From Salinispira sp. (GTDB lineage: Bacteria; Spirochaetota; Spirochaetia; DSM-27196; Salinispiraceae), in contig CBDDDG010000022.1 in NCBI GenBank assembly GCA_965226555.1, positions 160,001-224,000 on the forward strand: a DNA stretch of 64,000 bases. Direction: 5' to 3'. Made by a program: the position numbers and the translations under genes. This document shows positions 9,093 to 57,947 of the stretch, piece by piece; within the stretch, counting starts at the first letter, position 1, and every line of letters starts with the position of its first letter. The notes below the pieces were generated by a model. That model did no database searches. It was given only the letters and a program-made list of their open reading frames with translations, and was not told where the DNA came from.

Positions 9093-9348
9093 AACACTCT
9101 CCTCTCCCTATAGTATCGTGCTTAGAAGAGTGTCCGTTAAATCGAAGCAAGATCATGGATAATACTTCCATCGTCATAACACACATTAATCTCATAATTT
9201 GTACCCATTACAATACTTTTGACACCTTCAATACGAAAACTGCCAACCTCAGGAATTTCTACCATAGGCTTGTACATATTTATCTTCCTCACACAATGAC
9301 ATTATATAATATTTTTTAAATTAAACCAAGATAAAGAAAAATACTACT

Positions 9349-9377
9349 AGAAACTTTTGCATTTTGTAAAACTTTCT
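9349..9377. repeat. copy of the dispersed 29 bp palindrome (IS5-end-like)
   Basis: AGAAACTTTTGCATTTTGTAAAACTTTCT. Confidence 0.75.
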
Positions 9378-9477
9378 CATTGTAATATACGACAATTCAC
9401 CCATACACGCGCCATATTCCGCAAAAATTTCTGGTAATTTTTATTTAAATGTAGTATGGTTCCGATTGGAGGGCATT

Positions 9478-9651
9478 ATGAATATTAAGCAGATTGAAGA
9501 TATTTACAGAGAAATGGGTATTGGTTCTCGGGAAGAACGTGAACGCTTCCTACAGTGGCAATATACAGATTCACAGAAATCACAATCGAAATTTATTATA
9601 ATTATTGACACGGACAATACAACTGATCCCCTAGTATTAGAGGATTATTGA
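9478..9651 (+). CDS. small hypothetical protein coupled to the downstream protease
   Basis: GGAGGG RBS; stop overlaps the next ATG (TGATG). Confidence 0.55.
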   Translation: MNIKQIEDIYREMGIGSREERERFLQWQYTDSQKSQSKFIIIIDTDNTTDPLVLEDY

Positions 9652-11446: not shown

Positions 11447-11545
11447 CTATCCGGCAGGGTTTCATCGCCATCATCATTCTCATTGCATCGCCATCATCAT
11501 TCTGATCGGCTTGACTTTCGGGCATGGTTGCGGTATTTTCGGAGC

Positions 11546-38536: not shown

Positions 38537-38683
38537 AAAAAACACACATTTTGCAAAATTCTTTCCACATACACAGTCAAAAATGACCGTTTACCCGTCA
38601 CAGATATAGAGGAGAGAATTCACCATGGGACCATGTCGCCATGGGAGCTCCCCTATTCAGAAAAAAACGTTCAGGAGGATTAT

Positions 38684-39760
38684 ATGATCGATTTCAAAGA
38701 AAAACCCGCCCCCGTTCCCTACGACCAAGGATACCGCTCCCTGCTGTTCCAACCCGCAATAATGCTCCAATTTCTTCAACGCTTTGTCGGAGGCGCATGG
38801 ACGAAAAAACTCCGCCGTGAAGACATAACCATCGAAAACGGCACATTTTTCATTGACCATGCGAAAACACGAATGGCCGACATTGTCTGCAAAATCAGGA
38901 GTCGGGATCACACGGGAAATGTTGCTATCTATGTGCTCCTTGAGCATCAGTCTGGAGTGGACAAAGACATGCCCCTCCGCATGTCGGAGTATACGAATCT
39001 GCTCTATCGGAACATTCACCGCTCCGGCGCAATTCCCGATGACTGCGAGGTGGTATTTCTGCCCATTGTGTTCTATAATGGAACGCGAAAATGGAAGGTA
39101 CCCGGGAATGTCAGAGAGCAGAACACGCGGGAATTCCCGCAGTATCTTGCCCCCTTTCCCTACGATCTGATAAGTGAGAGCGATTATTCTGCGGAGCAGC
39201 TGCAGCAGCGGGGAAGAATGTTTGCGGCTGTTATGTACCTTGATCTGTACTCGAAAAATCTGCTGAATACGGATTGGGACATTCGGAAGGTGGAGAAAGC
39301 GATAGCAGAAATGCTGAATGAGGAATCGCTGGAGCTGATAAAGGAATTTATCGGCGTGGTAGATTCGATGTTCGGAATTGTTATAGACTTTGACACGCTA
39401 ATGAACAGATTAGAAAGAACAAAAGAACCGAGAGGTAAGGAGGTAGCGAAAATGTTCAGAATGAATGCGGAAACATTCAAAGCGCGCATTGCGGAAATGG
39501 GTCGGCAGGAAGGACTTCAGACAGGATTGCGAACAGGTCGTGAAGAAGGACTTCAGACAGGACTGCGAACAGGTCGTGAAGAAGGACTTCAGAAGGGGCT
39601 ACAGAAGGGGCTACAGGCAGGTCGCGCGGAGGGGCATATTGAGGAGCGGAGAAAAAACGCCCGCAGTATGTTTTTGGAAGGGTTGTCGACAGAGGCTGTT
39701 CAGAGGATTACCGGGCTGAGCGATGAGGAAATGCGGGCATTGCGGAACGGATCGCATTAA
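38684..39760 (+). CDS. Rpn/YhgA-like PD-(D/E)xK recombination-promoting nuclease
   Basis: YDQGYR, RMADIV, YVLLEHQS..DKDMPLRM.EY, PIVFYNG..KW; C-terminal GREEGLQ repeats and ITGLS HTH. Confidence 0.92.
   Translation: MIDFKEKPAPVPYDQGYRSLLFQPAIMLQFLQRFVGGAWTKKLRREDITIENGTFFIDHAKTRMADIVCKIRSRDHTGNVAIYVLLEHQSGVDKDMPLRMSEYTNLLYRNIHRSGAIPDDCEVVFLPIVFYNGTRKWKVPGNVREQNTREFPQYLAPFPYDLISESDYSAEQLQQRGRMFAAVMYLDLYSKNLLNTDWDIRKVEKAIAEMLNEESLELIKEFIGVVDSMFGIVIDFDTLMNRLERTKEPRGKEVAKMFRMNAETFKARIAEMGRQEGLQTGLRTGREEGLQTGLRTGREEGLQKGLQKGLQAGRAEGHIEERRKNARSMFLEGLSTEAVQRITGLSDEEMRALRNGSH
39452..39760 (+). CDS. putative internally initiated small C-terminal protein (RpnS-like antitoxin), 102 aa
   Basis: AAGGAGGT 7 nt upstream of the in-frame ATG at 39452, just before the repeat/HTH tail. 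Confidence 0.65.
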   Translation: MFRMNAETFKARIAEMGRQEGLQTGLRTGREEGLQTGLRTGREEGLQKGLQKGLQAGRAEGHIEERRKNARSMFLEGLSTEAVQRITGLSDEEMRALRNGSH

Positions 39761-40002: not shown

Positions 40003-41010
40003 ATGGAACAACGACAATTAGGTTCGCGGGGGCTACGCGTCAGCGAATTCTGCTTTGGAGCCATGACCTTTGGCAGGGAGGCGGATGCTTCCGAGAGCTA
40101 TGCCATGCTCAATGCCTTTGTTGATGCCGGAGGAACCTTCATTGATAATGCCGATGTCTACAACAACGGCCGCAGTGAAGAAATTTTAGGCGGCTGGCTG
40201 AAACATAAGCGGCGGCAGGATTTTGTCATAGCAACAAAGGTCCGCTTTCCCATGGGATCAGGCCCAAACGATGTCGGACTCAGCCGTCAGCACATTCTAA
40301 CCGAGGTTGAGAACAGCCTGAGACGAGTGAAAACCGATTACATCGATCTGTATCAGGTACATTGCTGGGATTCTGCGACTCCGCTGGAGGAAACACTCTC
40401 AACCCTCAACGATCTGGTACGGCAGGGAAAGGTCCGTTATATCGGGGCAAGTAATTATCTCCCATATCAGCTTCAGAAGGCAGTCGATATTTCACGGCGG
40501 GAGAGCTGGGAGCCATTCTGTTCCCTGCAGCCCCTGTATAATCTTCTTGACCGATTCATTGAATGGGAGCTTGTGGAACTCTGCCGGAGTGAGGGACTTG
40601 CGCTATTGCCCTGGTCTCCGCTGCGCGGCGGCTGGCTCACAGGAAAATTCCGTCGGGACGATACGGGACCTGCCGAGAATACCCGAGTAAAAACAGCCGA
40701 AAAAGAAGACTGGTACGAAACCTGGGCGCATTACGGTAATGACCGCACATGGAATGTGCTTGATGCGCTTGAAGATATTGGAAAGGCGCGGGGAAAGAGT
40801 ATTGCGCAGGTTGCCCTCAACTGGGTAAAGGATCAGCCCGGGGTAACAGCGCCCATTCTCGGCGCGCGGAACATGAAACAGTTCAGCGATAATCTCGGCG
40901 CAGCCGGTTGGACGCTGAGCACTGAAGAGCGGGAGCGCCTAAACCAGGTAAGTGAGCTTGAGTTACCCTATTACCCCTACGGCTTTATCCGCTGGGCAAC
41001 TTCACGCTAA
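40003..41010 (+). CDS. aldo/keto reductase
   Basis: [43 protein letters not shown]. Confidence 0.95.
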
Positions 41011-41654
41011 ACTTTGTACTGAAGCGCAGCCAGCACCGAACTGTCGCTGGCTGTTCGCTGGAATGTTTCTCCCTGGCCATGCTGCAGCACAAAGCGCACC
41101 TCGCCGTTCATGTGTTTTTTGTCTCGTTTCATTGCTGCGAGGAGCGCCTCGTCTGCTATGGAATCGACATTCAGCCGGTATCCGTAGAGCTGTAAGAGGC
41201 GGGTAATCTCAAAAAGACAATCTTTGTCACGATGTATGATATCGGCATGTCTCTCCTCAAGAAACTCAAGGAGAACAGCATCACCAAGCATGGCAGCTTT
41301 TATGACTTCGGCAAGCCCGCTGAGGTATTCCCGTTGGGGAAGGCTTTCAATGAGAGCGGGACAAATTCTCAGTTCACTGGCAGGGTAAATAGTTCCCACC
41401 ATGTTCTTGAATCCGATGTAGTTGATACCGGTCTTTGCGCTTTTTGCTGAGTCGGATTTTTGCGCCGATTCCCCAGAGTCTTGGGTTTTCCTGCTGTCAT
41501 TCACATAGAAACCGCTTCCTCGGAAAATTATCCCTGCGCCGCCGCTCACCAGCCTGCGAAGCGCAGGTTTCTTACATTCCGGGCAATCGGTAAGGGCATC
41601 ATCCGACATGTTCTGAAACACTTCAAAAACATGCCCGCATTCAGACGCATTCAT
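41007..41654 (-). pseudogene. chimeric remnant: FmdB-type zinc ribbon fused to two fragments of 3-dehydroquinate synthase (aroB)
   Basis: CGHVFEVFQNMSD...CPEC...IIFRGSGFYVND, then KTGIN..FKNMVG...SGLAEVIK, then MKRDKK...VRFVL. Confidence 0.8.
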
Positions 41655-42481: not shown

Positions 42482-43456
42482 TTGAGTGGAAGAAACGTGC
42501 CTGATCAAGAGATGCCACAGAGCAGAAACAACGTATTATTGCAGAATTCTCTCTTTTTTGAATTTCCTGAACAGGAGCAGGGCAGGCGCGCGACAAGGCC
42601 TCAGGCGAAGAGGAAACTTCAGGTAGCTAATGGATACCTTCTTAATTTCGATAACATAACACGTATTTTGAGCGCGGTTTGGGAGAATCGCTCATTGAAT
42701 AGAATTGGTCGAGCGGTTCTCGTGGAGTCAACCGGACTACCGAATAATCACGCACAGTGTCTTGTAAGTATGGCCTCCGCCATGGGATTAATTCAGCCAA
42801 TTGATGCAAGGCCTACCGCGTTTGGTTCTCTGGTAGCAAGCAACGATATGTTCTTTGAACGGCAGGGCACCCTCGAATGGTGTCACTACCGCGGAGCAGG
42901 ATCAATGCGGAACCTCGTATGGTTCGATACATTTAACCGGATAGTTCACGAGAATGAGCCGCAAACACACCGGCAGTGGAGCGCATGGTTCCGGTCGGAA
43001 TTGGCGGGGCAATATAGCGATCGGACGCTCCAGAAAGTTGAACGCGAGGTTCGCTTTGTCATCAATGCCTATCTGGAACAGAAACTCAAAACGCTTGAAA
43101 TTCTGGAATTGGGCGAAGGTGATGTAATAGTGCAGCGGAGACACCGGCAGATCGAGCATTTGATATTTGCGGCAATGCTCTACGACTTCATTGAGGCGCA
43201 GGGATGCAGGACCTTTGAAATTGCGAAATTGACGCGACTGCCGGGCAGTCCTGCCCTTGTGTTTGGATTAGATGCGGATTCAATGCGGTCGCTGGTCGAA
43301 GCTCTTCATGCGGAAGGGCTGGCACGTTACGAAACAACCCACAATTTGGATCAGATCCGGCTGATTCCGGGTTTCAGATCGGAAGAATTTCTCAGCGCGT
43401 ACTATGAAAAACGCCAACCCACAAGGGACAATGACCCCGGAGTTAGTCGTGGCTGA
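42482..43456 (+). CDS. DUF4007-like winged-helix protein (SspB / BREX type 4-associated); start may be 42497 or 42512
   Basis: AMGLI...PTAFG...D.FFE..GTL.WCHY, WF..FN, SPALVFGL, ETTHNLDQI pattern; first gene of the operon. Confidence 0.6.
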   Translation: MSGRNVPDQEMPQSRNNVLLQNSLFFEFPEQEQGRRATRPQAKRKLQVANGYLLNFDNITRILSAVWENRSLNRIGRAVLVESTGLPNNHAQCLVSMASAMGLIQPIDARPTAFGSLVASNDMFFERQGTLEWCHYRGAGSMRNLVWFDTFNRIVHENEPQTHRQWSAWFRSELAGQYSDRTLQKVEREVRFVINAYLEQKLKTLEILELGEGDVIVQRRHRQIEHLIFAAMLYDFIEAQGCRTFEIAKLTRLPGSPALVFGLDADSMRSLVEALHAEGLARYETTHNLDQIRLIPGFRSEEFLSAYYEKRQPTRDNDPGVSRG

Positions 43457-43916
43457 CAGTATTGATGTTATTACATTCGCGCGGGGCATATCGGCGAGGA
43501 AGCGCGGACGAGCTTGCGCAATTATGACTTATGAATATACCGAACAGCGTGACTGGGCAGCGAAGTTGGCGAGGTTGACTGACTTGGAGCACGTTGATGT
43601 TCTTGAGCTGTTCTATGAGGATGAGCAACTGGGGAATAATTTGTATTTTTACTCGCCGGAAGGCTTGTTTTCCCTGCTTCAGGATCGTCTGAAACAGGGG
43701 AACACTGCTATTGTATCGGGCATTGAATTTCTCAAGGCAAGTTGGAGCGGTCAAAAGAACAGCGCGGAGGAATTCGCGGCGTGTCTGGAGATGTGGCAGG
43801 GAAACCCCGCGTTGCTGTTCGTCATGCAATACGACAAGGCTATTGCCGAACATCCCTTCCGCCGATTCCGACAGCATACCTTCATCATCGATCAGAGGGA
43901 GACAATTGCTCTATGA
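43449..43916 (+). CDS. small alpha/beta protein, possible BrxB/BrxF-like degenerate P-loop subunit
   Basis: GGAG + GTG overlapping the upstream stop; ATGA overlap downstream; TAIVSGIEFL resembles a Walker-B strand. Confidence 0.5.
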   Translation: MADSIDVITFARGISARKRGRACAIMTYEYTEQRDWAAKLARLTDLEHVDVLELFYEDEQLGNNLYFYSPEGLFSLLQDRLKQGNTAIVSGIEFLKASWSGQKNSAEEFAACLEMWQGNPALLFVMQYDKAIAEHPFRRFRQHTFIIDQRETIAL

Positions 43917-46900
43917 AGAATGCCGGAATGTTCAGCGCGCTGTTTATTAATTCACTCAGGAAAAAGGTGTCGATGGATGATGCTGCATCCGGCCGTATGA
44001 CGGTACTTGCCCATTCCTTGCAGATGTATGAAATAAGCGATTCCGATGATGTGTGGAATGCGTTCCTGAAGCAGGCAGTGAGCTACTTGGAGTTCGTGCC
44101 TCCCCCGCGAAGGAGAGAGCGCCGGCTATTTCCGCTCTATGAAGACTGGAAGTGCAACAATTGTGTTAGCGTACTTATTGCGGCGCCCGGGAACAGCGAT
44201 CTCGATTCTTATGATGTGGGACAATTTTATCCGGGTAAGCTCATCCGCGAGCTTCGCAAACGTTCGCTGAGTTGGGGCATACTTACAAACGGAAAACTGT
44301 GGCGCCTGTACTCCGCCAGAAGCTCCCGTCCCTTTGAAGATTATGTTGAGCTCGATCTATCATCAACATTGAAAGAAAACGATGAGACAGAATACGCCTT
44401 GTTTGAACATTTCTTCCACCGGGACTCATTTGTCTCTGACGAAGAAAAAAACACGGAGCTGCCCTCATGCCGTTTACATGCGGACCGGCGCGCATCGGAA
44501 GGTATGCTTGACGAGCTGGTCAAAAAACCCTTTCTTGCTCAAGTGGATGAAGTACTTCGGTGTATCTGCAATGGATTCATCAGCGACACGCGAAAGCCCG
44601 GAGAGGAGTACACGGAGGAGAATTGCAGAGAAATTTTCGAGAGCGCGGTCACGCTGATCTACCGAACGCTTTTTCTGTTCTACGCCGAATCTCGCAGGCT
44701 CCTTCCTTCCGATCCTGAGAAGGCCGATCTTTATTGGCGGCATTCAATTAGAGCCCTCTGCGAAGAGTCCCTGAAGTTTCGTTGGGGTGAACGGCGCGAC
44801 AACAATGAATATGACCTGTGGCAGCATTTGAAGGAATTGACCGTTGCCGTGAACAACGGAGATCCCGAGTACGGAATTATGGGATACAACGGCGGGCTAT
44901 TTGATGATGAAGAAGAACGGTTTCTGCGCGATCATCGCTTACGGAACGACTTTCTGTCCCGAGCGCTGTACCTGTTGGCCTATGTGGATCCCCGCGATAA
45001 CAACAAAAATCGTGAGTACGCTATTCCCTACGAGGATCTGGAGATCAGGCATTTGGGTGGGCTCTATGAGAATATTCTGGAGTACACAGTGCTAGTGGCC
45101 GATGCGGATCGAATTCGGCGTCAGACCGGCAAAGGCATAGAGATTATGCTTGCTGAGGGACAGACAAAACGGCGCGGTGACAGCATTATAAAAAAAGGAG
45201 AAGTGTATTTTGGAGAGTCCTCGCTGGAACGGAAGCAGACCGGATCGTACTATACGCCGGAATCGCTGATTCGCTTTCTGAATGAGAAATCAATTGTCGT
45301 ACCGCTTATGGAACGTTTTGAAGCTGCGTATCGGGAGCGTTTCAATGCCTTCAAACAGGAGGCTCTTGAAAGTATTGACCCGGGAACACGGCGAGGCGCG
45401 GCGCAGGCGGGAGCGGAGTTAGTTAGCCGTTTTGCCGAGGAGGAACTTCTCTCCTATACCGTATGCGATCCGGCAATGGGCAGCGGGCATTTTCTGGTCG
45501 ACGCGACCAATCAGATGGCAGGAATCGTTATAACACTCCTTGCGGAGTTGCCGCATGTCGCTGGCATGTCGAGCGCAATTTCCAACAACCCAAATTTCTG
45601 GCGGCGGCGTGTTACTCGGCGCTGCATTTATGGGGTCGATTTAAATCTGCTGGCGGTAAACCTCGCAAAACTGTCGCTCTGGCTCAATTGCTTTGCGAGC
45701 GATCACAAACTCACCTTCCTCGACCACCATGTGCGATGCGGAAACAGCTTAATTGGCATTCGCAATGTGAAGAATCTGAGGCAGATTCCAAAGCGCGGGA
45801 ACGACAGGAAAAACAAGAAGAATGATGAAGGCGACAGTCTCTTCAATGTCGATGATCTTTCTGCCGCGCTGACCGAGGCAGCCGGAGGAATCGCTGGCAT
45901 TGCCCGAATTAATGAGGATGACACCGACCGTCAACGGGAGTCCCTGCGCGAAGCGGAAAAAACGTTGGCGCGAGTCCGCCCCCTTGCGGATATATACACG
46001 GCATATGTAATGAATCCCACTATTCTCCTTGACGAATACCGCCAGTTGTTCACGAAACTTGCCTCGGGTGAGGATGCATCGTCATCGCTCAATTTGGAAT
46101 TGTCGGAGATTTACCGGCAGGCGCGGGAGCTCAGCGCGCGGCACAACTACTTCCACTGGCCTCTGGTCTTTCCCAATGTCTTCGGTTCAGAGGGAAGTGG
46201 AGGTTTTAATGCGACAGTGGGCAACCCGCCATGGGACGTTTTGCAGGCGAATACCCAAGAGTTCTACGTTAACTACGATCCGCAATTCCGGAAATACAAA
46301 AAGCAGGATGCTCTACAGTCCATAAGGGATCTCCATCTGCAGTACCCATCACTCTCCGAACATTGGATAGCGTACCAGAAGGGATTCCAGGAATCTGCAA
46401 CCTTCTGCAAGGAACCAGCTGTATATAGGAGTCTCATAAACGGAAAAATCAACCTTTATAAGGCATTTCTTGAGCGTTTTTTCCAGCTCCTCAGTGCGGG
46501 CGGACGCATGGGGCTCATAGTACCCAGTGGTATTTACACCGACAAAGGCTGCCAACCCCTGCGGGAGTTGTTCTTTGAGAGGAGTTCCGTAGAATTTCTG
46601 TATGGGTTTGAAAATCGGTATCCAATGGTGTTCAATTCTGTTGACAGTCGCCTCAAGTTCGTGCTTTTCGGCGCGCGCAGGGGCGGGACAACCGAGCGTT
46701 TTCGCTGCGCGTTTATGGAACATGATCCTGAGCGGCTCCCTTTCATTGACCGCAATGCGCTCCATACGAACATCGAACAGGTACGAAGGTTCTCGCCAAA
46801 TACCCTGAGCATTATGGAGTTCAAAAACCAGCGTGATATTGACGTCACAACGAAAATATACGGAAACTGGCCGCTTCTTGGAGAAAAAATTGAGGGAACA

Positions 46901-47854
46901 TGGAACGCGCGGTTTCGACAGGAACTGAACATGACAAGTGACAGTCATTTGTTCAAAACCACCCCAACGGAGCACCCGCTCTACGAGGGCAAAATGATCT
47001 GGCACTTCGACAGTGAATTCGCTCCGCCGCAGTACTGGCTGGACAGGAAAGAAGTGACCGCGTCCCTTGGCGAGACGGCCTATGAGGGCGAGCATTACCG
47101 GGTGGGTTTTCGGAATATTGCGATGGGTACGAATGAGAGAACGCTCATCGCAACGCTTATTCCTCCGAGATGTTGGAGCGGTAACTCTCTCTCAATGATC
47201 AGTCCTCGCGAGAGCCATCAATTATCGGACAGGCCAAATGAGTTCGTGTCAATGTACCTTGCTGCTGTTCTTTCTTCGCTTGTTGTCGATTTCATCATCC
47301 GTCAGAAAGTGACAAGCAATATGAGTTTTTTTTATATGAAGACTCTCCCCGTTCCGCGAAAATTTACGACAGTTAGCGGGGACATTGCCCGCGCCATTGT
47401 TGCGCGATCCGCTCGTCTCATTGCGACATCGGCAAAGTATGCGAATATCTGGCGCGCGCTCTTCCGAGAGGAATGGAGCAGGCCGGAATTCTGGTATTCC
47501 GCTGAATTACCGCAGAATACATACGGACCTGCCCACGAACAGGAGATTCGCGAGCGCATTCAGCGTAATGCCATTAAGCTCACGAATACATGGGAGCCTC
47601 ACTGCGGCGTTCATGAAAGGCGCCATGACCGCCGCGATACTGGCGACCGAGCGCAGCTCCGCGCGGAGATTGATGCCTACGCTGCCCATCTATACGAACT
47701 CTCACGGGAAGACTTTACCCATATTTTAGACACCTTTTCCGTACTTAAGAACAAGGAAATAAAGGCCTTCGGCGAGTACATAACCAGACGAAAATGCTTA
47801 GAAGAATATGAAAGAATGTCGGAAAGAATACGACCAAATAGAGATGGGGTATAA
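43913..47854 (+). CDS. large N6-adenine DNA methyltransferase (Eco57I/PglX-like)
   Basis: YNGGLF, LGGLYE, RKQTGSYYTP, CDPAMGSGHFL (motif I), IYGVDLN, GNPPW (motif IV), LYEGKMI TRD region; N-terminal WGILTNG..WRLY. Confidence 0.92.
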   Translation: MKNAGMFSALFINSLRKKVSMDDAASGRMTVLAHSLQMYEISDSDDVWNAFLKQAVSYLEFVPPPRRRERRLFPLYEDWKCNNCVSVLIAAPGNSDLDSYDVGQFYPGKLIRELRKRSLSWGILTNGKLWRLYSARSSRPFEDYVELDLSSTLKENDETEYALFEHFFHRDSFVSDEEKNTELPSCRLHADRRASEGMLDELVKKPFLAQVDEVLRCICNGFISDTRKPGEEYTEENCREIFESAVTLIYRTLFLFYAESRRLLPSDPEKADLYWRHSIRALCEESLKFRWGERRDNNEYDLWQHLKELTVAVNNGDPEYGIMGYNGGLFDDEEERFLRDHRLRNDFLSRALYLLAYVDPRDNNKNREYAIPYEDLEIRHLGGLYENILEYTVLVADADRIRRQTGKGIEIMLAEGQTKRRGDSIIKKGEVYFGESSLERKQTGSYYTPESLIRFLNEKSIVVPLMERFEAAYRERFNAFKQEALESIDPGTRRGAAQAGAELVSRFAEEELLSYTVCDPAMGSGHFLVDATNQMAGIVITLLAELPHVAGMSSAISNNPNFWRRRVTRRCIYGVDLNLLAVNLAKLSLWLNCFASDHKLTFLDHHVRCGNSLIGIRNVKNLRQIPKRGNDRKNKKNDEGDSLFNVDDLSAALTEAAGGIAGIARINEDDTDRQRESLREAEKTLARVRPLADIYTAYVMNPTILLDEYRQLFTKLASGEDASSSLNLELSEIYRQARELSARHNYFHWPLVFPNVFGSEGSGGFNATVGNPPWDVLQANTQEFYVNYDPQFRKYKKQDALQSIRDLHLQYPSLSEHWIAYQKGFQESATFCKEPAVYRSLINGKINLYKAFLERFFQLLSAGGRMGLIVPSGIYTDKGCQPLRELFFERSSVEFLYGFENRYPMVFNSVDSRLKFVLFGARRGGTTERFRCAFMEHDPERLPFIDRNALHTNIEQVRRFSPNTLSIMEFKNQRDIDVTTKIYGNWPLLGEKIEGTWNARFRQELNMTSDSHLFKTTPTEHPLYEGKMIWHFDSEFAPPQYWLDRKEVTASLGETAYEGEHYRVGFRNIAMGTNERTLIATLIPPRCWSGNSLSMISPRESHQLSDRPNEFVSMYLAAVLSSLVVDFIIRQKVTSNMSFFYMKTLPVPRKFTTVSGDIARAIVARSARLIATSAKYANIWRALFREEWSRPEFWYSAELPQNTYGPAHEQEIRERIQRNAIKLTNTWEPHCGVHERRHDRRDTGDRAQLRAEIDAYAAHLYELSREDFTHILDTFSVLKNKEIKAFGEYITRRKCLEEYERMSERIRPNRDGV

Positions 47855-47856
47855 TT

Positions 47857-48456
47857 ATGACTCAAACCGCAAACTCAATTTTTACCATAGGATACGCGGC
47901 TCTTGCAATAGAACGATTCATTGAGTTACTGCGCTTGTATTGCATAACTATTTTGGCCGATGTCAGATCTCAACCCTACAGTCGTTACAGTCCGGAATAC
48001 TCCCGTGATCCGCTTAAGGTTTTGTTGGAAAAATCCGGTATTCGGTACGTCTTCATGGGAAAAGAACTTGGCGCGCGGCGCGATGAACCGGAATGTTACG
48101 AGGATAGCAAAGCGCGGTACGACCTCATCGTCAAAACTCCGGCTTTTCGGGAAGGAATCGCGCGTCTCAAAAGGGGGGCGCTAAAGTATCGCATTGCGCT
48201 TTTATGCGCCGAAAAAGACCCTATAACCTGCCATCGTTCAATACTGGTTTCCCGGGAATTGTCTCGCGAAGGTGTCAATGTCCAACATATTCGCCATGAT
48301 TGCTCTCTCGAATCACAGCAACAATTAGAGCAACGTTTACTCAAATTACATGAAAGGGATCAGGTAGATCTTTTCGATAACAAGTCAACGCGCCTCAATT
48401 ATGTATATACACAGCAGGCGGACTATATTGCATTTGTCCGTGAAGGAGAAGAATGA
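47857..48456 (+). CDS. DUF488-family protein
   Basis: IFTIGY, DVRSQPYSRY, ELGAR, ALLCAEKDP..CHR. Confidence 0.88.
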   Translation: MTQTANSIFTIGYAALAIERFIELLRLYCITILADVRSQPYSRYSPEYSRDPLKVLLEKSGIRYVFMGKELGARRDEPECYEDSKARYDLIVKTPAFREGIARLKRGALKYRIALLCAEKDPITCHRSILVSRELSREGVNVQHIRHDCSLESQQQLEQRLLKLHERDQVDLFDNKSTRLNYVYTQQADYIAFVREGEE

Positions 48457-48457
48457 T

Positions 48458-48892
48458 ATGATGCTATTTACCATTGGTTTCACAAAGACAACTGCCGAAT
48501 GTTTCTTTAATCGTCTCAAGAAGGCTGGTGTGCAAAGACTTATTGATGTTCGACTAAACAATCGTTCGCAATTAGCCGGATTTGCGAAACAGCAGGATTT
48601 GGAGTATTTCCTGAAGGAAATTGTGGGCATTGACTACATATACAGACCTGAATGGACGCCGACTCAGGATATTCTCGATGCATATAAAAAGCACAAAGGA
48701 AACTGGAATGTTTATGAAGTTACATTCAATGAGCTGATAGGCGACCGACACATTGAGCAATATACAGACGTAGGAATGCTCAATAATGCCTGCCTGCTGT
48801 GCAGTGAAAATACAGCAGAACATTGTCATCGTCGGCTTGTAGCTGAATATCTGCAAAAAAAATTTGAGGAGCTCGAAATATGTCATTTGTAG
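48458..48892 (+). CDS. second DUF488-family protein
   Basis: LFTIGFTK, IDVRLNN.SQLAGFAK, CLLCSE....CHRRLVAEYL. Confidence 0.88.
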   Translation: MMLFTIGFTKTTAECFFNRLKKAGVQRLIDVRLNNRSQLAGFAKQQDLEYFLKEIVGIDYIYRPEWTPTQDILDAYKKHKGNWNVYEVTFNELIGDRHIEQYTDVGMLNNACLLCSENTAEHCHRRLVAEYLQKKFEELEICHL

Positions 48893-49528
48893 TCGAACTG
48901 GTTGTGCTGGCCAACTCCCGCAGACCCAACGGACGGTGCATTGCGGGTATCAATCGGAAAACGAGTCAATGGATACGTCCAGTTGGAGCAGATGGCCTCG
49001 GCGAGGTTCCCGATAATCTGCGGAAAATTAATGGAAAAGAACCGAATATACTGGATATTGTACGAATGGAACTCGAAGAATCGGCAGAAACATACCGGTT
49101 TCAGATGGAAAACCGTAACATTGTAAACAAACCCTGGTCTTTTGTTGGAAAGGCCGCTATTGCTGATGTCCTGCCGTATTGCTGTCAGGATCGACACGTT
49201 TTTTTTAACCATCATATTCGTATCCCCCATTCCGATCTTTGCGGCAATTCTTCATGGAATTCTTCTCTCCAGTTATGGGAAGTGGAGGATTTTAGGTGCG
49301 AATACAATGAATATAAAAAATGGAAAGGCACGTTCTCTATTCCGAGTGGGGATGAGCTGTCTCTCAGCATCACGGATATTGACTACCTAACGCGTCTTAA
49401 CTCGGGCTATAAACCCGGTGAACGCGCCCTACTACTCATAAGTCTGGGGGGGTCCTCATCAACCTGAATATGAAGGGTGGACAAAGATGTATTGCTGGAA
49501 ACTCATTGCGGGGGTAATTGAGCTATGA
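48880..49528 (+). CDS. dual OB-fold domain protein; apparent frameshift at G7 (49446-49452)
   Basis: VLANSRRPNGRCIAG...WIRPV, LSITD; deleting one G gives SLGGPHQ...CWKLIAGVIEL*. Confidence 0.7.
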
Positions 49529-49544
49529 CGATAGGGAGAATGAC

Positions 49545-52500
49545 ATGGCAAAAATAAAAGATGTTGTGCGCATTAAGGGCGGATACGTAAATTTCGTAGA
49601 GCTCAAGAGCGCATTCGAAGAATCTCAGCAAAATGCCGACAGAATGGCAATGTACCGCCCCACCAAAGCGCACCGCAGAGCCTTTGAGCAAATATCACGA
49701 GGACTCTTTCACCCCAACAACAAGAAATTCTACCTCCTGAGCGGCTCCTATGGAACCGGTAAGTCGCACCTCTGCCTCATGCTCGCCAATATCCTGAGCC
49801 GAGCGAGCGGAGACCCGACAATTGCCGGTTTCTACGAGAACTACAGCAAACTAAATTCTGAATCCGCAAAGCATTTGAAAAACATTCGCAAGGACGGACA
49901 GTACCTTGTCGCTATATGCGACTACCATTCCGGCAAACGCTTTGAGGACATTGTGCTGAAGGCGGTGTTGAATGCCTGTAAGTCTATGGGGCTCAATGCC
50001 CAGGTGGAAACGGAGTTCAATGAAGCGGAACGTCAGCTTGCGGCATGGGAGGAGCTGGGAAACTCGGGAGGCATTCGGAATTTCTACCAGGATTTTAGCG
50101 CTGCGCTTACTTCGGTATCTCCGGCTTCCACGGTGGAGCAACTTCGCCGTTCCCTGAAGGACTATGACTCGCAGGCTCTGGAACAATTCCGGCTCGCCTT
50201 CAGGGAAATGATGGGAGGGATCGAATTTCAGGCTACGTCAGGAAATCTCATTCCTATTATTCAAAAGCTTGTCAACAGTCAGGAGTTCAGGAATCGATTC
50301 AAAGGTCTCGCGGTGTTCTTCGATGAGTTTGGCTTCACATTGGAGAAAGCCAACTACTCCAAAGACATTCTGCAAGGCTTTATGGAGACCATCTGCAAAA
50401 ATGAACCGAACGTTATGTTCATTGGGTGCATTCACAAAGACTTCAAATCCTATGCCGACCGCTTCAGCCAGGCCGATGCCAATGTTATGAGCGCCCGTAT
50501 TACTCAGGTGAGTCTGCTGAACGAAGGTATTGAGGAAATCATTGAGGCCATTGTGGAGACCGATAAACAGAGTCCCGTTTGGAAAGAGAACATTGAAGCA
50601 AAAATACACATATTTGATCGGCTTAGTCCTCAGTGTAAATCGCTCAATCTTTTCCCATGGATCGATAATGCTGCGCCTGTTCTGGAGAATATTTACGGCG
50701 TGCATCCCATGGCTCTTTCATGTCTGCTTAAACTATCGTCCGAAATTGGCTCGGACGCGCGCAGCGCTTTTACCTTCTTCACTGGTGCCGAAGATGACCG
50801 GGGAGCGTCATATTCGGACTATATTGAACATACCAATATTGTTGTCAATGGCGGTAAGCTTAATCTCTATACCGTCGATAAGCTCGCCATTTTTTTCAGA
50901 GCGATTTGCTGGTTCGAAATTCGGATCTTCGCGAAGGGCAACGGAATGTTGTCAATGGTTACATTGCGAGTATCGATGTGCTTCGCAAGGCAAAACCAAA
51001 TGAACTGGAAGGTTTAGAAGATGATGATCGCCAACAAATTCTGAATCTCCTCCTTATCTATCGCATCTGCCAAATTTCAGCGAATATGGAGAACATTCAG
51101 TTCGGCCTGTACTGTCTGACTTCGCACGAAAAAAAGCGCGTTGTGACTTTACTCAAGGAACTGGAGAAGTACGGAGCGGTGTTTTTCCGGCGACAATCTA
51201 AAACCTATGAGTTGCTTGAAGGTTCAGGCGAAGATCCCTACGATCTCATTGATCGTTTCATTGCCGATAGCTCATTGCATCCGCATGATTCGGTTAAAGC
51301 CTTCCTCGATGATGCCGGATTAAAGAGTTCGGAAGAGTTTGTGGAAGCAAAAGGATTCAACCTGCCCTACACCGATGACAAGCGATTCCGCAGGGAATTT
51401 GTCCGAGCGAAGGATCTTGGCAAGGAACTGTGGGATTCCTTTCAGAAAAAATATGATGATGCCCGCGCGAATCCGAGCAAAAGCTATGAAGGTGTCCTAG
51501 TGTACGCACTCTGTGAAGATGAAGCGGATGTTAACGTTGCCCGCGATGCCGCGAGAATAATTTCATGGGAGCGGCTTGCGGTTTCTGTTCCTCACAATCC
51601 CAAACCCTTCGGCGAGACATTACTCAAAGTTCGGGCCTGTCGTCACTATCTTTCCAGAGATGCGAAGATTAGCGCTCAGACTGAATCGAGAATGCGCGAT
51701 ATTCTAGATAATAAGGACGATGGGGCGCGCGCCACACTGAAAAATACTCTTGACCAAATTTCCGAAGGCAGCGATTCGAGCTGGCACACCGTGAGAGGTT
51801 CAATTCTTGTAGATAAGCCCCAACAGGCGCATCGGCCTGCGGACATGCTCTGCGAGAAACTCTTCAACAAACGCTCGCTCATTAAGCACCCCGATCTCAA
51901 TTTGTGTCACGATGATCGGTGGAAAACCGGTAAAAATAACGCGCTCAAAGATGCGGTCAGGGTCTTGCTGACCGCCGAGCGGGTCATGATCGATAACGGA
52001 AACCCGGACAGCCACGGCGAGAAACGCTACCTTGAAAAGGTGCTGCTGAAAGGTTCCGGCGCGCTCAAAAAGACTGGCGATGATGGGCGAGTAACTTATT
52101 TTACGTGTGAGTCAGATTCCTCAAAACTGAATGATAGTTTTCCGGCGCTGAAGGAGCTCTGCGCAGGGTTGGAGAATAGTAGTTCCGGGCAAAACTTCAA
52201 TGCGGGGGCATTTCTCGCCAAAGTTCGCAACGCCCCTTATGGCGCGGGGGGAACCGCCCTCATTCTGGCTTTTGCCCATGTTATTCGGGCCTACGGAGAG
52301 CGCCTGAGTTTCTTCAAAGATTCAATGAAAATGCTGGAATTGCCCATACAGTCATATACGGATATTGAATCAATTGTGGATAATTCCGCATCTCAGGTCG
52401 TCATTTCCATTCGAAACATTAGCGCTGAACAATTCGATCTTGTCAATCGTATTGCAATATCTGCGGGCGAGTCGGAGCTCAGGCATGGCGAAAAACGATC

Positions 52501-53566
52501 TCTCAAGAATGCGTATGGGGCGGTCATGGGCTGGTACTTGCAATTACCGAATGTTTCGCGAATTGTGAAATTATATGGTTTGAATGATCGGAAGCGTCTG
52601 GCAGCGCTCATGGAGCTGTTGGACAGCGAGATCGGTCAGTCAGATTATTTCGGACTCCTCCTTGAGCGCCTGCCCGGTCTGTACCAAACAGGAAGCGATG
52701 TCGCCACATTGACCGATTCCGAGGTAACGCTGGTTGCCAGAGAATTCAAACGTGACATAGCAGAGCTTGAATCGGCCGAGCAGATTATTATGGGTATGGT
52801 CGCGACTTCTCTCTGTGAGGTATTCGGTGTTGAGGGAGACATAATTGAGTGCGAGAAGGTTATGACCGACTGGTACAAGAATCTCAATTATTCCCAGCGC
52901 GATGCCGGACACTACAATGACAGCGATACTGCCTCCCTCATCTCCTGTCTTGGGCAGGATAAGTCCTTTGCAAAAATTATTGGGACAGAACTTCCAACAG
53001 ATTTTGGATTTGACGCGGTCCGTAATTGGAACTCTCTCCACATTCGCGATTATGCGGAAAAGGTTGCGAAGGCGAAGGAGGAAATTGACCGCGCGAGAAT
53101 TCAGGTGCCAAAACCTGCGATAGAGCAGCCCTCGCTTGAAATTGGGGAGAAACAGAGCGCTACCCTCAATATTCCATCGGGCGCGGCAATGCTTGTTTAC
53201 ACGGTCGATGGCTCTGATCCGAAGACATCGAAGACAGCGCAACGGGCAGAGGCAAATATGGATCTTGCGGAGCTTCTTGCGGGTGCGCCGAATGTGCAAG
53301 CGAAGATTCGCGCGCTGGACAATAAAGGGAATTATAGCGATTCTGTTGATGTCGAGCTCATCGACAAGCAACGCAAATATGAATTGAAAATCAATAATGA
53401 CATGTACGCGCCGGAGGCGACCTTCAAATGTCCGAATGATCTGGATGGGTTCGTTACCGTACTTAAATCTCTTCTGCAATTCGCAATCGATAAATCGTTG
53501 CTCAGCGCGGAAGCAGCCAGCGAAGTCGAAGCCTCGCTGAACAAGCACCCCTCGAAGGAATCGTGA
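49545..53566 (+). CDS. large BrxC/SspC-like P-loop ATPase; apparent frameshift at T7 (50890-50896)
   Basis: Walker A GSYGTGKSH, Walker B VFFDEFG, YGVHP, RSAFTF; adding one T fuses the two ORFs into about 1340 aa; C-terminal VYTVDGSDP Ig/FN3-associated domain. Confidence 0.8.
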
Positions 53567-55962
53567 AAATGCAGCCTTTTCGAATACATTCCATAGGCGA
53601 TCTCGACCTGCCGATTCCCGAAACCGCGCTTGTGGTAGACAATGACGGCTCCTATGTGCAGGCATGCCATGCAACGCGGACGGCAATTCAGAATAAAGAT
53701 GAATTGAATCTGTGGGTTCGCGCGCCTCACCATGCCGAGTGGCTCAAAAATTACTTCGCCCAACTGCGAGTAGACGTGGAGGGACTTGAGGAAACCGCCC
53801 GTACCGTACTCGTCAAAAAATGGTCAGTGACCATTCCCAACTGGGTGTCCAATGAAGACATTATTAAACAGAAATTGCTCAATCTCGACATTAAGGCTGG
53901 CGCGGGCAAGACCTTTGAGGCAGCGCTGATCAATACACTCATTAGTGTGGATATATCGCCTGCTATTCCCGATAATTCTGCGGTGAGGGAACTCATTGCC
54001 GCTCTCACCGATAATCGCTATGCCGTCGCTAGGAAGGAATTCCCGATTCTGGAGGAGACTCTCAAACGGTTGGCAACAACGTGGCGGGCGCGGGCCCGCG
54101 CTGGCTGGCTCGCAGATCTGTGTGAATACATTCCAGAGAATGGTAAAATAGCATGGCGCCTGCTCTCCGCAGTTGCGATTCTCCAGTCGTATCCGAAGGA
54201 ATTACTTGATCGGGTATTGCCCAACGGACAGGCATCGCTCGCTCGTAAAATACCGCGCGATGTAACTGAATACCTGCCTCTGGAACCCGAAGCCAGGGAG
54301 GAATCTCTGACTCAAATTAAACTTATCTTCTCTGAATGTGAGCCAAAAATAAATTCTCAAAGTGAGTTTCGAAAGGTAGTCTCATGGGTGTCGGGAAGGA
54401 CGGCTGAGGAATATCGTTTTATTGAAAACATACTCCGAAGCGGTCGCTTCGAACCGACCGCAGATGACATTCGGCTTACGCGCGAAACGTTTAAAAGCTC
54501 CTCTGAAGTGCGGCCCAGCCGCCTCGAAGCGCTCAAGTACCTCGCGCGCCCGGCCTATCCGTTACTGGAGAACAATGAAAAACTCCCGAACTCCACAGAC
54601 TGGATTCGTTGGACAACCGAAAAATACGCTCAGTACCGCAACTGGCAAGTGAAAAATAACCGTTACGATGCGGAATTGGAAAAAACCGTCTGCCAATTCT
54701 CGGACTGGTACATTGATCACTATGCCGCTGTTCAATCCGATTCCAACGCAGCTCTTGCGCAGGCGCTGAATTTATTGAATGCGAACGAGCTTGAGAATCG
54801 ACTGACAATTCTCTTAATGGTGGATTGCCTGCCTGTTACCTTCTTCGGACTTATTGACCATGCCCTTAAAACCTCCGGTTTCAAGCGGCATGACCTAAGC
54901 TATCGCTACGCCGCGCTTCCCACAGTGACGGACTTCAACAAAGCGGCAGTGATCTCTGGAAACCCCGGTCGAAATAAAAATACCTATTCCAAGATCCTCA
55001 CTGAACGATCTGAGGCCGACTGGGGAGGAGCAAAAGTTCATTACGTCTCAACGCTACGGAATCTGTCAAAACTTACTATTGGCGCGGAAGCATCGGTAAT
55101 TCTGTTTAATCATATTGAGGGCGATGAAATATTACATTCCGATGTCGAAGCGAAAAACCGCGCCTACGAGGAAGATCTCGCTCGTTCCTATACGCAACTT
55201 TCTGAAGCTCTCTTCGATATCTGCGATCGATGGGACGGGGCGAAGGATCGTGTTTCAATTATCCTTCTGACCGATCATGGCGCGTGCCGTGCTCTTAAGG
55301 AAGAGATGAGAAATTTCGCCTCAAGGGTTGTGAGTAAGCTTTTTAATGACGAAAAATATCGTTTTGCCTCCATGACGAGCGAGCAGGCTAATGAGATTCC
55401 AGAAAACCTTTGGGATACAGGTTATCGCTTCACGGAGCCGTTCTCCCGCGACACTACTACGCATTTTTTGCCTCGCGGACATAATACGGTACGCAAGACC
55501 GGAGCTGTTGGGGGGTATGCGCATGGCGGAGTTGCTCCTGAGGAAGTTATTGTGCCTATGGCGCGCTATGCTCTGCTCTCTACTGAGTGGAAGAGACCAT
55601 TCGTCCGATGCTTGAATCTCAAAATGTCTGCGAATGGGCAGAAGGCGCAGTTCTATATACAGCGAGTTGTCAATGTCGAAGTGGAAATACAGAATCCGAA
55701 TTCTGTCCCGCTTCAACCGACAGCTCTTGAGTTACTTTCGCCCGATGCAAGGGTTAAGGGAGCGCGGTTGTGTAATATAGCCCCTGAATCAACGGGTATA
55801 CTGTCCATTGATCTCTACTTCCAGAAAACCGCGCAGAATGCTGAAAATCTTGAATTACAGATTCGCTATACCATAAGCGGGGAAGAATACGAAAAAAATC
55901 TTGTTTTTTCGGCCGAATTCATGTCGGCGATGTCTGACGGATTCTCATTAAAAAATCTCTAA
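53563..55962 (+). CDS. pglZ: PglZ-domain alkaline-phosphatase-superfamily protein
   Basis: LLMVDCLP, ALPTVT..NK, ILLTDHG, YAHGGVAPEEVIVP. Confidence 0.85.
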   Translation: MKMQPFRIHSIGDLDLPIPETALVVDNDGSYVQACHATRTAIQNKDELNLWVRAPHHAEWLKNYFAQLRVDVEGLEETARTVLVKKWSVTIPNWVSNEDIIKQKLLNLDIKAGAGKTFEAALINTLISVDISPAIPDNSAVRELIAALTDNRYAVARKEFPILEETLKRLATTWRARARAGWLADLCEYIPENGKIAWRLLSAVAILQSYPKELLDRVLPNGQASLARKIPRDVTEYLPLEPEAREESLTQIKLIFSECEPKINSQSEFRKVVSWVSGRTAEEYRFIENILRSGRFEPTADDIRLTRETFKSSSEVRPSRLEALKYLARPAYPLLENNEKLPNSTDWIRWTTEKYAQYRNWQVKNNRYDAELEKTVCQFSDWYIDHYAAVQSDSNAALAQALNLLNANELENRLTILLMVDCLPVTFFGLIDHALKTSGFKRHDLSYRYAALPTVTDFNKAAVISGNPGRNKNTYSKILTERSEADWGGAKVHYVSTLRNLSKLTIGAEASVILFNHIEGDEILHSDVEAKNRAYEEDLARSYTQLSEALFDICDRWDGAKDRVSIILLTDHGACRALKEEMRNFASRVVSKLFNDEKYRFASMTSEQANEIPENLWDTGYRFTEPFSRDTTTHFLPRGHNTVRKTGAVGGYAHGGVAPEEVIVPMARYALLSTEWKRPFVRCLNLKMSANGQKAQFYIQRVVNVEVEIQNPNSVPLQPTALELLSPDARVKGARLCNIAPESTGILSIDLYFQKTAQNAENLELQIRYTISGEEYEKNLVFSAEFMSAMSDGFSLKNL

Positions 55963-57947
55963 TGGAGGAACCATATATGCAATCCTTTGAACGTAAAGCG
56001 CAGGACTACTACGGTGAGGTAATAATTAACAAAGGGCTTATGAGAAAAGCCGGATTTGGCGCCCGGGCGATTCCCGTTTATGTGGGCGAGTGGATCATCA
56101 GTCAGTTCATGGATGGCGGAGAGCTGACCGAAGATGGACGCGCGGAAATTGTTACTACCATTTCCAAATTCCTCCCGCAGAAGGCTGACAAGAATACGAT
56201 TCTAAATCGACTCATGGATCAGGAAGAAGTTCGTATTCTCGATGACTTCAGGGTTAATGTTAATCTTGCGAAGAACACCCACGAGCTCAGTATCCCATTA
56301 CTCGATATCAGCAATGGTATGGTACAGAAAGATATTATCAATCAAAACCCAATGCTCTTAAAAACCGGGATGTGGGGACTCGGGACGCTCAGATATGTAC
56401 CGCCTGACGATGAAATCAAAGAAGGGCAGATCTGGATGATGGACTTCAAACCTTTTCAGTCTCCCGGCGTAGATATTGACTACTATCGTGACTCACGGAG
56501 GCACTTCGAGACAGAAGAATGGATTGATCTGCTTGTGTCGAGCTGCCAGTTTAATCCGGAAATACTCAGACTTCCCCAGAAGCTTTTGTTGCTCAGCCGA
56601 ATCATCCCGCTCGTGGAACCGAGAACTAACATAACCGAACTTGCGCCAAAAGGAACAGGGAAATCATTTGTTTTCGACAACATCAGTCGCTACGCGACCG
56701 TCATTCCAGGCGGGAAACTTTCTGCGCCGTCTCTGTTCTTCAACAGCAATACTAGGCAATTGGGACTCATTCCGCGTTACGATGTTGTTGTTGTCGATGA
56801 GATTCAGAAAATTCATACCGATGCTACCGGTGAAGCAATGGCTGCGCTGAAAATGTATTTAGAGAGCGGACGGTACCGAAGAGCCACTGGAGATCTCGGT
56901 ACGTCAGAATCTGGATTTGTCATGTTGGGAAATATTACCCTCGGAATGAATCGCCTTCCGTTGTACGAGAGCGATGGAATTTTCAAAGAGTTGCCGAAGG
57001 CTCTTCAGGAGTCAGCGTTCATTGACCGCATTCACGGATTAATCGAAGGCTGGTACATGCCCCGTGTGTCTCGGCACACACCATCGAAAACCTGCGGCTT
57101 CAAGGGCGATTTCTTCAGTGAAGTCTTACACGAACTTCGGGTTGATCTGAAATACGCCGATTTTGTGACACAACATCTTGCGCGCCTCGAATGCGACGAT
57201 ATGCGCGATAACAAAGCGATTGCGCGATTGGCTGAAGGTTTTCTGAAACTTCTCTTTCCAGATTTGAACGTAACAGATGAGAATTTTAACATATTCTGCC
57301 TCAACCCTGCAATCCGGATGCGTCAGCAGATTCGAGATGAGCTCTCGAAGATCGACCATGAATTCAAATGGGTTACCATTAAGAGCAATTTACCGGACGA
57401 GTTCCAGCTCTCTCACCCATCTGAACGTCCCGATCTGGAGGGCGAGAAAGCAAAAACCGATCCTCTTAATCCGAGTCGTAAGCCCGATGAGCGGACTGTG
57501 GAAATTACCGAAGGTCAACAAGGCATCTCATTCGAAAAACTCTTCCTGCCGTATCTCAAAGGCGCCAGAGAAATTCGCATTTACGATCCGTATATCCGGT
57601 ACCAATACCAAGTATTCAATCTTATGAACCTTTGCGAGATTCTTGAACCCCGTAATGCGTCCATCAAAGTTTCGCTTATTACTACCGCCGATCAGTTCAG
57701 CGAAGACGAAATTACCGCAAAACTTGGCGAAGTAAAAAAAGGATTGAGCCGCGATGACATTGAATTCAATTTTACTTTCGATCCGAACCTCCATGATCGA
57801 TGGATCAAAACCGACACCGGCTGGCGAATCACATTGGGCAGGGGGCTGGATATCTTTCAGAAGCCCGCTGACAAGTTCACACTGGGGTTCATGAATCAGA
57901 CGAAGAGAAAATGCAAGGAAACAAGTGTGGTTTATACGCGAGGATAA
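55962..57947 (+). CDS. brxL: BrxL-like ATPase with a C-terminal MIT_C/PLD-like domain instead of a Lon protease domain
   Basis: IPVYVGEW, LKTGMWG, FKPFQ, EEWIDLL, ELAPKGTGKSF, VVDEIQ, AFIDRIHG..GW..P; tail DPYIR...LHDRWI.TD.GW.I.LGRGLDIFQ. Confidence 0.88.
   Translation: MEEPYMQSFERKAQDYYGEVIINKGLMRKAGFGARAIPVYVGEWIISQFMDGGELTEDGRAEIVTTISKFLPQKADKNTILNRLMDQEEVRILDDFRVNVNLAKNTHELSIPLLDISNGMVQKDIINQNPMLLKTGMWGLGTLRYVPPDDEIKEGQIWMMDFKPFQSPGVDIDYYRDSRRHFETEEWIDLLVSSCQFNPEILRLPQKLLLLSRIIPLVEPRTNITELAPKGTGKSFVFDNISRYATVIPGGKLSAPSLFFNSNTRQLGLIPRYDVVVVDEIQKIHTDATGEAMAALKMYLESGRYRRATGDLGTSESGFVMLGNITLGMNRLPLYESDGIFKELPKALQESAFIDRIHGLIEGWYMPRVSRHTPSKTCGFKGDFFSEVLHELRVDLKYADFVTQHLARLECDDMRDNKAIARLAEGFLKLLFPDLNVTDENFNIFCLNPAIRMRQQIRDELSKIDHEFKWVTIKSNLPDEFQLSHPSERPDLEGEKAKTDPLNPSRKPDERTVEITEGQQGISFEKLFLPYLKGAREIRIYDPYIRYQYQVFNLMNLCEILEPRNASIKVSLITTADQFSEDEITAKLGEVKKGLSRDDIEFNFTFDPNLHDRWIKTDTGWRITLGRGLDIFQKPADKFTLGFMNQTKRKCKETSVVYTRG

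Follow-up and report, generated by a model that had tools for sequence, protein, structure and literature searches.

Which kind of bacteriophage exclusion (BREX) system carries an adenine methyltransferase among parts that resemble those of phosphorothioate-based systems? The question is raised by nine co-oriented genes (g1 to g9, Table 1) in a 64,000-nucleotide stretch of Salinispira sp. contig CBDDDG010000022.1 (positions 160,001 to 224,000; hereafter the window), which a preliminary description read as one hybrid operon, a type-4/Ssp scaffold with its marking swapped to N6-methyladenine (m6A). Analysis of the genes and of about 100 related loci suggests that they are probably a six-gene BREX-family core (g1, g2, g3, g7, g8 and g9) holding a three-gene DUF488/DuOB cassette as embedded cargo, with adenine self-marking and exclusion of unmarked phage DNA as the predicted function. 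All nine plus-strand open reading frames (ORFs) described earlier are present with tight ends: g1 and g2 overlap by 53 nt, g2 and g3 by 4 nt (ATGA), g7 and g8 by 4 nt (GTGA) and g8 and g9 by 1 nt (TAATG), and g3 and g4 are separated by 2 nt. The family names first given to them hold in Pfam, PADLOC and NCBIfam scans, in the case of g2 by fold likeness only. The gene arrangement is not due to chance, because the same parts recur in related loci across many phyla.

PglZ of the g8 lineage is rare, with 9 clusters found by word search. Its profile gave 520 matches at E <= 1e-3 and 119 at E <= 1e-30 among 1.84 billion representatives, with a clear drop after the window's own clade; a scan with the single protein found one locus, in a Spirochaetales metagenome-assembled genome (MAG) that is the nearest relative, and an alignment-based scan of species-representative genomes found 25 own-clade loci, in Thermodesulfobacteriota, Acidobacteriota, Planctomycetota, Pseudomonadota, Ignavibacteriota, Omnitrophota and Spirochaetota. 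With A denoting DUF4007, B the small P-loop protein, X the methyltransferase, C the ATPase, Z PglZ and L BrxL, these loci are ordered A-B-X-(slot)-C-Z-L wherever the DNA reaches far enough (tblastn; 63-77% identity for the N-terminal part of the ATPase and 69-87% for BrxL), and DUF4007 lies directly upstream in 5/5 extended loci. The same gene order, which the preliminary description had proposed to seek in other genomes, is therefore found there, and the locus is one member of a widespread family rather than a one-off hybrid. Tiny branches separate the copies of Acidobacteriota, Planctomycetota, Ignavibacteriota and Thermodesulfobacteriota, indicating that the system moves horizontally; it was found in 0/25 genomes related at the level of family or order. 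A sister clade is defined by the PglZ cluster that comes next in the profile search (about 785 aa, 100-300 bits; 113 relatives, 80 kept); it is mostly Chloroflexota, with members in Bacillota, Bacteroidota, Thermotogota, Armatimonadota and on one plasmid. Its loci are built of the same parts (20-57% identity) in two arrangements: in X-A-B-C-Z-L the BrxL is short (470-486 aa), and in A-B-C-X-Z-L it is about 690 aa long and carries MIT_C. DUF4007 is in every case followed by a small ORF of 153-178 aa.

Table 1. Features of the BREX-like locus, in window coordinates
Feature	Position	Strand	Size or evidence
g1, DUF4007/SspB-like protein, predicted BrxA role	42482..43456	+	324 aa from TTG 42482
g2, small degenerate P-loop protein, BrxB/BrxF-like	43404..43916	+	170 aa; database form 161 aa
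g3, N6-adenine DNA methyltransferase, Eco57I/type IIG/DrmMI-like, predicted self-mark writer	43913..47854	+	1313 aa
g4, DUF488 protein, putative cargo, PDC-M45B	47857..48456	+	Pfam DUF488 E 5.2e-27; PADLOC E 1.9e-71
g5, DUF488 protein, putative cargo, PDC-M45C	48401..48892	+	Pfam DUF488 E 5.1e-21; PADLOC E 7.2e-65
g6, dual-OB (DuOB) protein, putative cargo, PDC-M45A	48880..49467	+	Pfam DuOB E 1.5e-34; PADLOC E 5.4e-23
g7, SspC/BrxC-like large ATPase, two frames (49518-51017 and 50906-53566)	49518..53566	+	PADLOC
T run (seven T) splitting g7	50890..50896	+	sequence; with eight T, a single frame of about 1340 aa
g8, PglZ, divergent lineage	53563..55962	+	799 aa
g9, BrxL with C-terminal PLD/HKD-like domain	55962..57947	+	661 aa

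Some features of individual relatives (loci are labelled L with a number) may be recorded here. The DUF4007 protein of L027, L028, L029 and L030 (L027 895-2382) is 456-495 aa long, with an N-terminal UPF0758_N extension, like the N-terminus of RadC, that g1 lacks. In L017, from the Spirochaetales MAG, a decayed tandem copy lies directly upstream of the DUF4007 gene of the full system: pieces of BrxL and of another PglZ (62% identity, covering residues 301-797 only) at 10178-11620. The own-clade locus L102 (6430-9635) is interrupted by an IS66-family transposase, with the ATPase on one side and a truncated PglZ on the other. The upstream region of L100 (15-3632), a distant member from an Anaerolineaceae MAG, encodes a 908-aa protein with RNA-polymerase alpha-CTD, Sigma70_r4 and HARE-HTH domains.

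The two proteins expected of any BREX system are present: a PglZ of alkaline-phosphatase fold (g8) and, beside it, a large P-loop ATPase of the BrxC/PglY type (g7, read through the T run). The AlphaFold model of g8 (predicted local distance difference test, pLDDT, 89.1) resembles PorX (E 5.9e-14) and the BREX PglZ proteins of Acinetobacter (9zn5_B, E 2.2e-13) and Salmonella (9nv3_C, E 2.5e-10) in Foldseek, and D419, T454, D519, H523, D569, H570 and H652 are invariant over 40 sequences. Its sequence scores 35.8 bits (E 3.5e-9) against the NCBIfam type-4 model BREX_PglZ_4 (NF033445), under the cut-off of 140, and 14.5 bits against PglZ type B (NF033450; cut-off 400), with TIGR02687 not listed; among the 50 nearest full-length PglZ representatives none reaches an NCBIfam BREX PglZ cut-off. 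The Walker A motif of g7 (GSYGTGKS, residue 76) is intact, and in PADLOC the protein matches SspC (68 bits) above BrxC (30 bits). g9 reaches the curated BrxL model TIGR02688 (434.8 bits, cut-off 329.3) and consists of BrxL_N, BrxL_ATPase and MIT_C (E 1e-43) in Pfam, with the motif HDRWIKTD at residue 611. The DUF4007 assignment of g1, made by eye at first, is borne out by Pfam (48.4 bits, E 9.3e-13; gathering score 27), and PADLOC matches the protein to SspB (E 4.4e-9, 34 bits) and to the C-terminal part of BrxP (E 6e-7); ATG 42512 is an alternative and possibly the true start.

These proteins reach the defining models of none of the BREX types tested, which agrees with the first view of the locus as a variant outside the defined types. 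Comparison was made with two type-4 loci (BrxP 786 aa, BrxC 1383, PglZ 721, BrxL 485) and three type-1 loci. Type 4, a phosphorothioate-writing system of the order brxP-brxC-pglZ-brxL, is resembled in the DUF4007 module (fused in type 4 to the 3'-phosphoadenosine-5'-phosphosulfate (PAPS) reductase BrxP), in an SspC-like ATPase of about 1340-1385 aa and in PglZ followed by BrxL, and the window's ATPase (56 bits in BLASTP, versus 31 against type 1) and BrxL motor (32% identity and 242 bits, versus 27% and 188 bits) are nearer to the two type-4 loci. It differs in that the locus carries an adenine methyltransferase in place of the PAPS reductase, a free-standing DUF4007 protein and a separate small P-loop protein, a PglZ far under the type-4 cut-off, and a BrxL with an HKD-like tail, whereas type-4 BrxL is short, without a C-terminal domain, and is said in the available part of PMC12839542 to have no such tail. 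Domain scans of the nine proteins found no PAPS reductase, cysteine desulfurase or helicase, as first reported, and tblastn at E 1e-5 with type-4 BrxP (two queries) and type-1 BrxA and BrxB (three each) matched 0/99 locus rows. Two PAPS_reduct genes occur in the genome, both on other contigs, and are likely housekeeping genes, since the same models match in 13-14 control genomes. PglZ is equally far from both types (39 bits against type 4, 38 against type 1; types 1 and 4 match each other at 38 bits), and the HKD-tailed BrxL is a type-1 trait in print. Of the claim of a type-4/Ssp scaffold with marking swapped to m6A there remains the nearness of the ATPase, DUF4007 and the BrxL motor to Ssp/type 4; a type-4 scaffold with a swapped marking module is only one reading, and any swap could have run in either direction.

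Type 1 BREX (brxA-brxB-brxC-pglX-pglZ-brxL) offers six analogous roles, including a gamma-class NPPW adenine methyltransferase of about 1200-1300 aa, and part of the sister clade is in exactly its gene order. According to PMC12839542, about one third of type-1 BrxL proteins have an HxR..D PLD-like tail, and BrxL-HKD fusions carry an H-R-D variant that is described as type-1-specific, matching the MIT_C domain and motif of g9. Sister-clade methyltransferases match type-1 PglX at up to 66 bits, and g3 does so at 33 bits, with no counterpart in type 4. That the locus is a deep-branching type 1 system, its proteins diverged past the type-1 models, is nevertheless improbable. The A protein is DUF4007 rather than BrxA (DUF1819), BrxA and BrxB (DUF1788) went unmatched in the tblastn search given above, the ATPase and PglZ fail the type-1 models, g3 scores 35.3 bits against PglX (NF033452; cut-off 500) and is nearer to type IIG/DrmMI models, the own-clade methyltransferase precedes the ATPase, and the BLASTP scores of the ATPase and BrxL favour type 4. 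In the PglZ and ATPase trees, moreover, the own clade (support 100) and the sister clade (98) stand together with support of 83 for PglZ and 97 for the ATPase, and the three type-1 sequences, on a separate long branch, and the two type-4 sequences lie apart from them on branches of 2.2-2.5; the BrxL motor tree gives a similar and compatible picture. The preliminary description was to be abandoned if the first gene proved to be a conventional BrxA and if PglZ and BrxL nested within type 1 or 3; in these small trees PglZ and BrxL lie apart from the type-1 sample, and g1 is not BrxA.

Other phosphorothioate or capture systems share single parts with the locus. SspABCD, which acts by single-strand phosphorothioation, is resembled weakly by g1 and g7 at the SspB and SspC scores given above; it differs in its SspA cysteine desulfurase and SspD PAPS-reductase-like protein, no domains of which appear among the nine proteins in Pfam and PADLOC, and in lacking the PglZ and BrxL of the window. 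The HerA/FtsK-centred capture system also has PglZ, a BrxC-like ATPase, DUF4007 and a small STAND-type NTPase in the accessible text of Rakesh & Krishnan (NAR 2026), whereas, set against this system and the DUF499-centred BR systems as described there, the window's core is without HerA, GNAT, TGT and DUF499 and has a methyltransferase and BrxL.

The methyltransferase g3 is likely the system's self-marking enzyme. It matches Eco57I (E 2.2e-21), MmeI_Mtase and N6_Mtase in Pfam and carries the motifs DPAMGSGHF and NPPW, read from the translation; homologues of 46-68% identity (tblastn) occur in 13 distinct own-clade loci, each contig counted once. The presence of an adenine methyltransferase instead of a PAPS reductase, one of the first claims made for the operon, is thus conserved across the family, with no type-4 BrxP detected in related loci by tblastn, and the gene is not the one-off insertion that would have told against that claim. 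Among own-clade loci spanning at least 4 kb upstream of the ATPase, only L097 is without a methyltransferase; its ATPase is 5'-truncated and the genes upstream are unrelated. It is very unlikely that g3 is an independent type IIG restriction-modification enzyme beside a type 4/Ssp-like C-Z-L remnant, and not the system's writer. Its best PADLOC match is indeed a type IIG model (REase_MTase_IIG, 277 bits; DrmMI, 262 bits), and the part of PMC12914056 (Nat Commun 2026) available to us describes a Fischerella island of brxL, brxZ, sspB and a methyltransferase that is not treated as part of the system, adding that such methyltransferases may act independently. The methyltransferase of the present family, however, travels with the other five genes through both clades and three gene orders, and no PAPS reductase was found in its place in the searches described above. 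The type IIG models cover g3 only from about residue 210 onward, and the N-terminal domain before it is conserved in the family and has no conserved E-x-K in an alignment of 14 members judged by eye; no built-in nuclease is evident. When solved structures were searched by sequence, g3, DUF488 and the PglZ profile had no match, and DuOB gave chance-level rows only.

The small protein g2 has no match in Pfam, PADLOC or NCBIfam and 45 homologues of about 154 aa. Its AlphaFold model (pLDDT 91.5) is a minimal P-loop alpha/beta domain that resembles AAA+/ASCE proteins in Foldseek (probability 0.9-0.98, E values of at least 2e-3) and reaches a best Z of 7.7 in VIA. The g2 family aligns with the small proteins of the sister clade (hhalign 99.3%, E 4.6e-20), some of which keep a Walker A motif GPPxSGKT and a Walker B motif D-x-x-D-F-L. 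We read g2 as belonging to a small P-loop family, with a Walker A that has degenerated and a position in the operon where type 1 has BrxB, and it would act as a BrxB-like adaptor; an Atlas likeness to BrxF of 0.83 is a lead only. The early BrxB/F-like assignment is plausible in fold, while its likeness to BrxB is not specific and the BrxF model is not reached.

The genes between the methyltransferase and the ATPase occupy a slot that varies from 92 to 3941 bp among the loci, being empty in L019 (92 bp) and 1.3-3.9 kb long elsewhere. Its occupants in relatives are other defence genes and include YhcG and HEC-01 (L014), GmrSD and HEC-01 (L022), an NsnA-like protein (L024), a C5 methylase with an HhH-GPD nickase (L025) and SIR2-HerA with HEPN and one DUF488 gene (L017/L001); the commonest is an AlbA_2-HATPase_c_4 protein (L008, L010, L018, L099, L101, L002). 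In the window the slot holds two DUF488 genes and DuOB, adjacent genes that match models B, C and A of the PADLOC defence candidate PDC-M45 in that order (Table 1). Because the slot content varies among related loci, the three are cargo rather than core, contrary to the initial assignment of these genes to the BREX operon, and a nine-gene hybrid system was rejected in favour of six core and three cargo genes. PDC-M45 would be an autonomous add-on, embedded in a BREX-like system just as the PDC models were collected, with the window differing in its B-C-A gene order. g5 is 26% identical to g4, probably starts at ATG 48458, and matches DUF488-N3a at 32.6 bits (cut-off 27). A literature search found no paper on the function of DUF488 or DuOB or on a link between them and BREX.

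The slot protein AlbA_2 (Schlafen)-HATPase_c_4-wHTH/Fic-like_C, which is absent from the window, lies at 4350-5807 in L008 and 4498-5856 in L010 and occurs also in L018, L099, L101, L002 and L040; instead of being cargo, this protein may regulate the system.

The integrity of the ATPase in this genome depends on one homopolymer base. With seven T in the run, as in the window, the protein is split after residue ~458; eight T would read ...AIFFQSDLLVR... in a single frame, and the ATPase of relatives is a single ORF of 1344-1348 aa. The run was compared in contigs of sequencing runs X3 and X4, from the same sample, either of which may be the source of the window and neither of which gives proportions; contigs of the cave-metagenome runs X1 and X2 do not span it. 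The Logan contig of X3 (depth 4.3) has seven T, and the contig of X4 (depth 7.7) has one extra T after 50889. The two assemblies of one sample thus disagree, which may reflect a homopolymer error or true heterogeneity. If the frameshift is real, the locus would be dead or phase-variable here, with the system off in at least part of the population. This we consider unlikely: the window and X3 agree, yet the deeper X4 contig reads eight T, the other eight genes are all intact, and homopolymer length errors are common.

Several considerations weigh against a functional six-gene core with separate cargo, the interpretation that we prefer. Both the window and one of the two assemblies have the frameshifted ATPase, and therefore the system may be inactive in this genome; methylation and defence by any member of the family are predictions only. 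The reference set is small (three type-1 and two type-4 loci, with types 2, 3, 5 and 6 left out), the PglZ and ATPase trees were built with FastTree and the BrxL motor tree with a quick IQ-TREE run, and one type-1 BrxL row (T1a_L) is a wrong ORF, with no BLASTP match and a branch of about 10 in the BrxL tree. Two BrxP proteins as tblastn queries could miss a divergent PAPS reductase. For g2, the likeness to the BrxB chain 9zll_G of the Acinetobacter BrxC-BrxB-PglZ complex (Z 6.5, rmsd 4.0, 139 aligned residues) ties with that to many P-loop folds, and BrxF (NF033453, cut-off 50) matches none of eight own-clade small proteins and three of ten sister ones, at 12-16 bits. The cassette also appears beside relatives: in L071, of the sister clade, DuOB, DUF488 and DUF488 lie directly after BrxL (8078-9823), in a gene order unlike the window's and with the last DUF488 protein 59% identical to g5; cassette genes also lie near L072, and L001 has one DUF488 gene. 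With this recurrence, the cassette may have a functional tie to the core and may prefer this host system. Upstream of A-B-C-Z-L in L100, within 15-3632, there is further a gene for a class-V aminotransferase (cysteine-desulfurase-like); no methyltransferase was detected in this locus, which may be a sulphur-marking cousin. A literature search found no paper defining a DUF4007-plus-methyltransferase BREX, and the supplement of PMC12839542, which lay outside the search, may already list these loci.

The analogy on which a mechanism for the six-gene core can be built is type 1 BREX, reportedly as set out by Goldfarb in 2015. It draws also on type 1 as treated in the available text of PMC12839542. 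The DUF4007 protein, modelled there as a BrxA-like triple helix-turn-helix, would scan DNA; the methyltransferase would write m6A on host DNA together with the A, B, C and Z proteins, cooperating with them as PglX does in type 1; and incoming DNA without the mark would be the target of PglZ, with its conserved metal and nucleophile residues, and of BrxL through its HxR..D domain. A wider reading, offered tentatively and with less than even expectation that it will hold, is that the A-B-C-Z-L machine is a third major BREX chassis, driven by an adenine methylase in this family or by a phosphorothioate writer in type 4 and perhaps in L100, in which exclusion would read marked versus unmarked DNA whatever the chemistry of the mark. 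Such a chassis would have a docking slot for swappable second-line defences, with DUF488/DuOB as a recurrent and possibly cooperating guest.

The surroundings of the operon contain other defence and mobile genes. A pair of McrBC type on the minus strand (17896-21254), comprising a McrC-like protein (Pfam McrBC, E 2e-59) and a 694-aa AAA_5 protein, is a predicted second defence system ~21 kb upstream. An rve integrase lies at 7921-8826 (minus strand), and an IS5-like DDE transposase (DUF772 and DDE_Tnp_1; 34900-35916, minus strand) and a YhgA/Transposase_31 protein (38633-39760, plus strand) are within 8 kb upstream of the operon. At the island's left edge, a 215-aa ORF at 41007-41654 (minus strand) has the look of a gene remnant: Zn_ribbon_8 is joined in it to short stretches from the end and the start of 3-dehydroquinate synthase domains. 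Downstream of the operon NCBIfam identifies a SpiroCoCo protein, as befits a spirochaete genome. Promoter and terminator counts in this region were not above those in shuffled sequence, and no flanking direct repeats of at least 11 nt were found around the operon.

Two papers bear on the place of the family among published loci. In the part of PMC12839542 available, 89% of 457 type-4 taxa have PAPS reductase and 97% have DUF4007, leaving room for DUF4007 loci without the reductase, and 'brxCZL' islands are reported to adjoin dnd or ssp genes in the corresponding part of PMC12914056. Because no NCBIfam PglZ cut-off is reached and PADLOC matches to PglZ are weak, existing censuses probably undercount the family. 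Judged from sequence, it is a real, conserved and horizontally mobile BREX variant with a putative methylase writer and a cargo slot, its function being predicted. For the mechanism of BREX, the joining of Ssp/type-4-like sensing and motor parts to a methylase is a natural experiment on the readers and writers of self-marks. The slot between methyltransferase and ATPase is, in turn, a place to seek new defence genes, of which PDC-M45 is one candidate.

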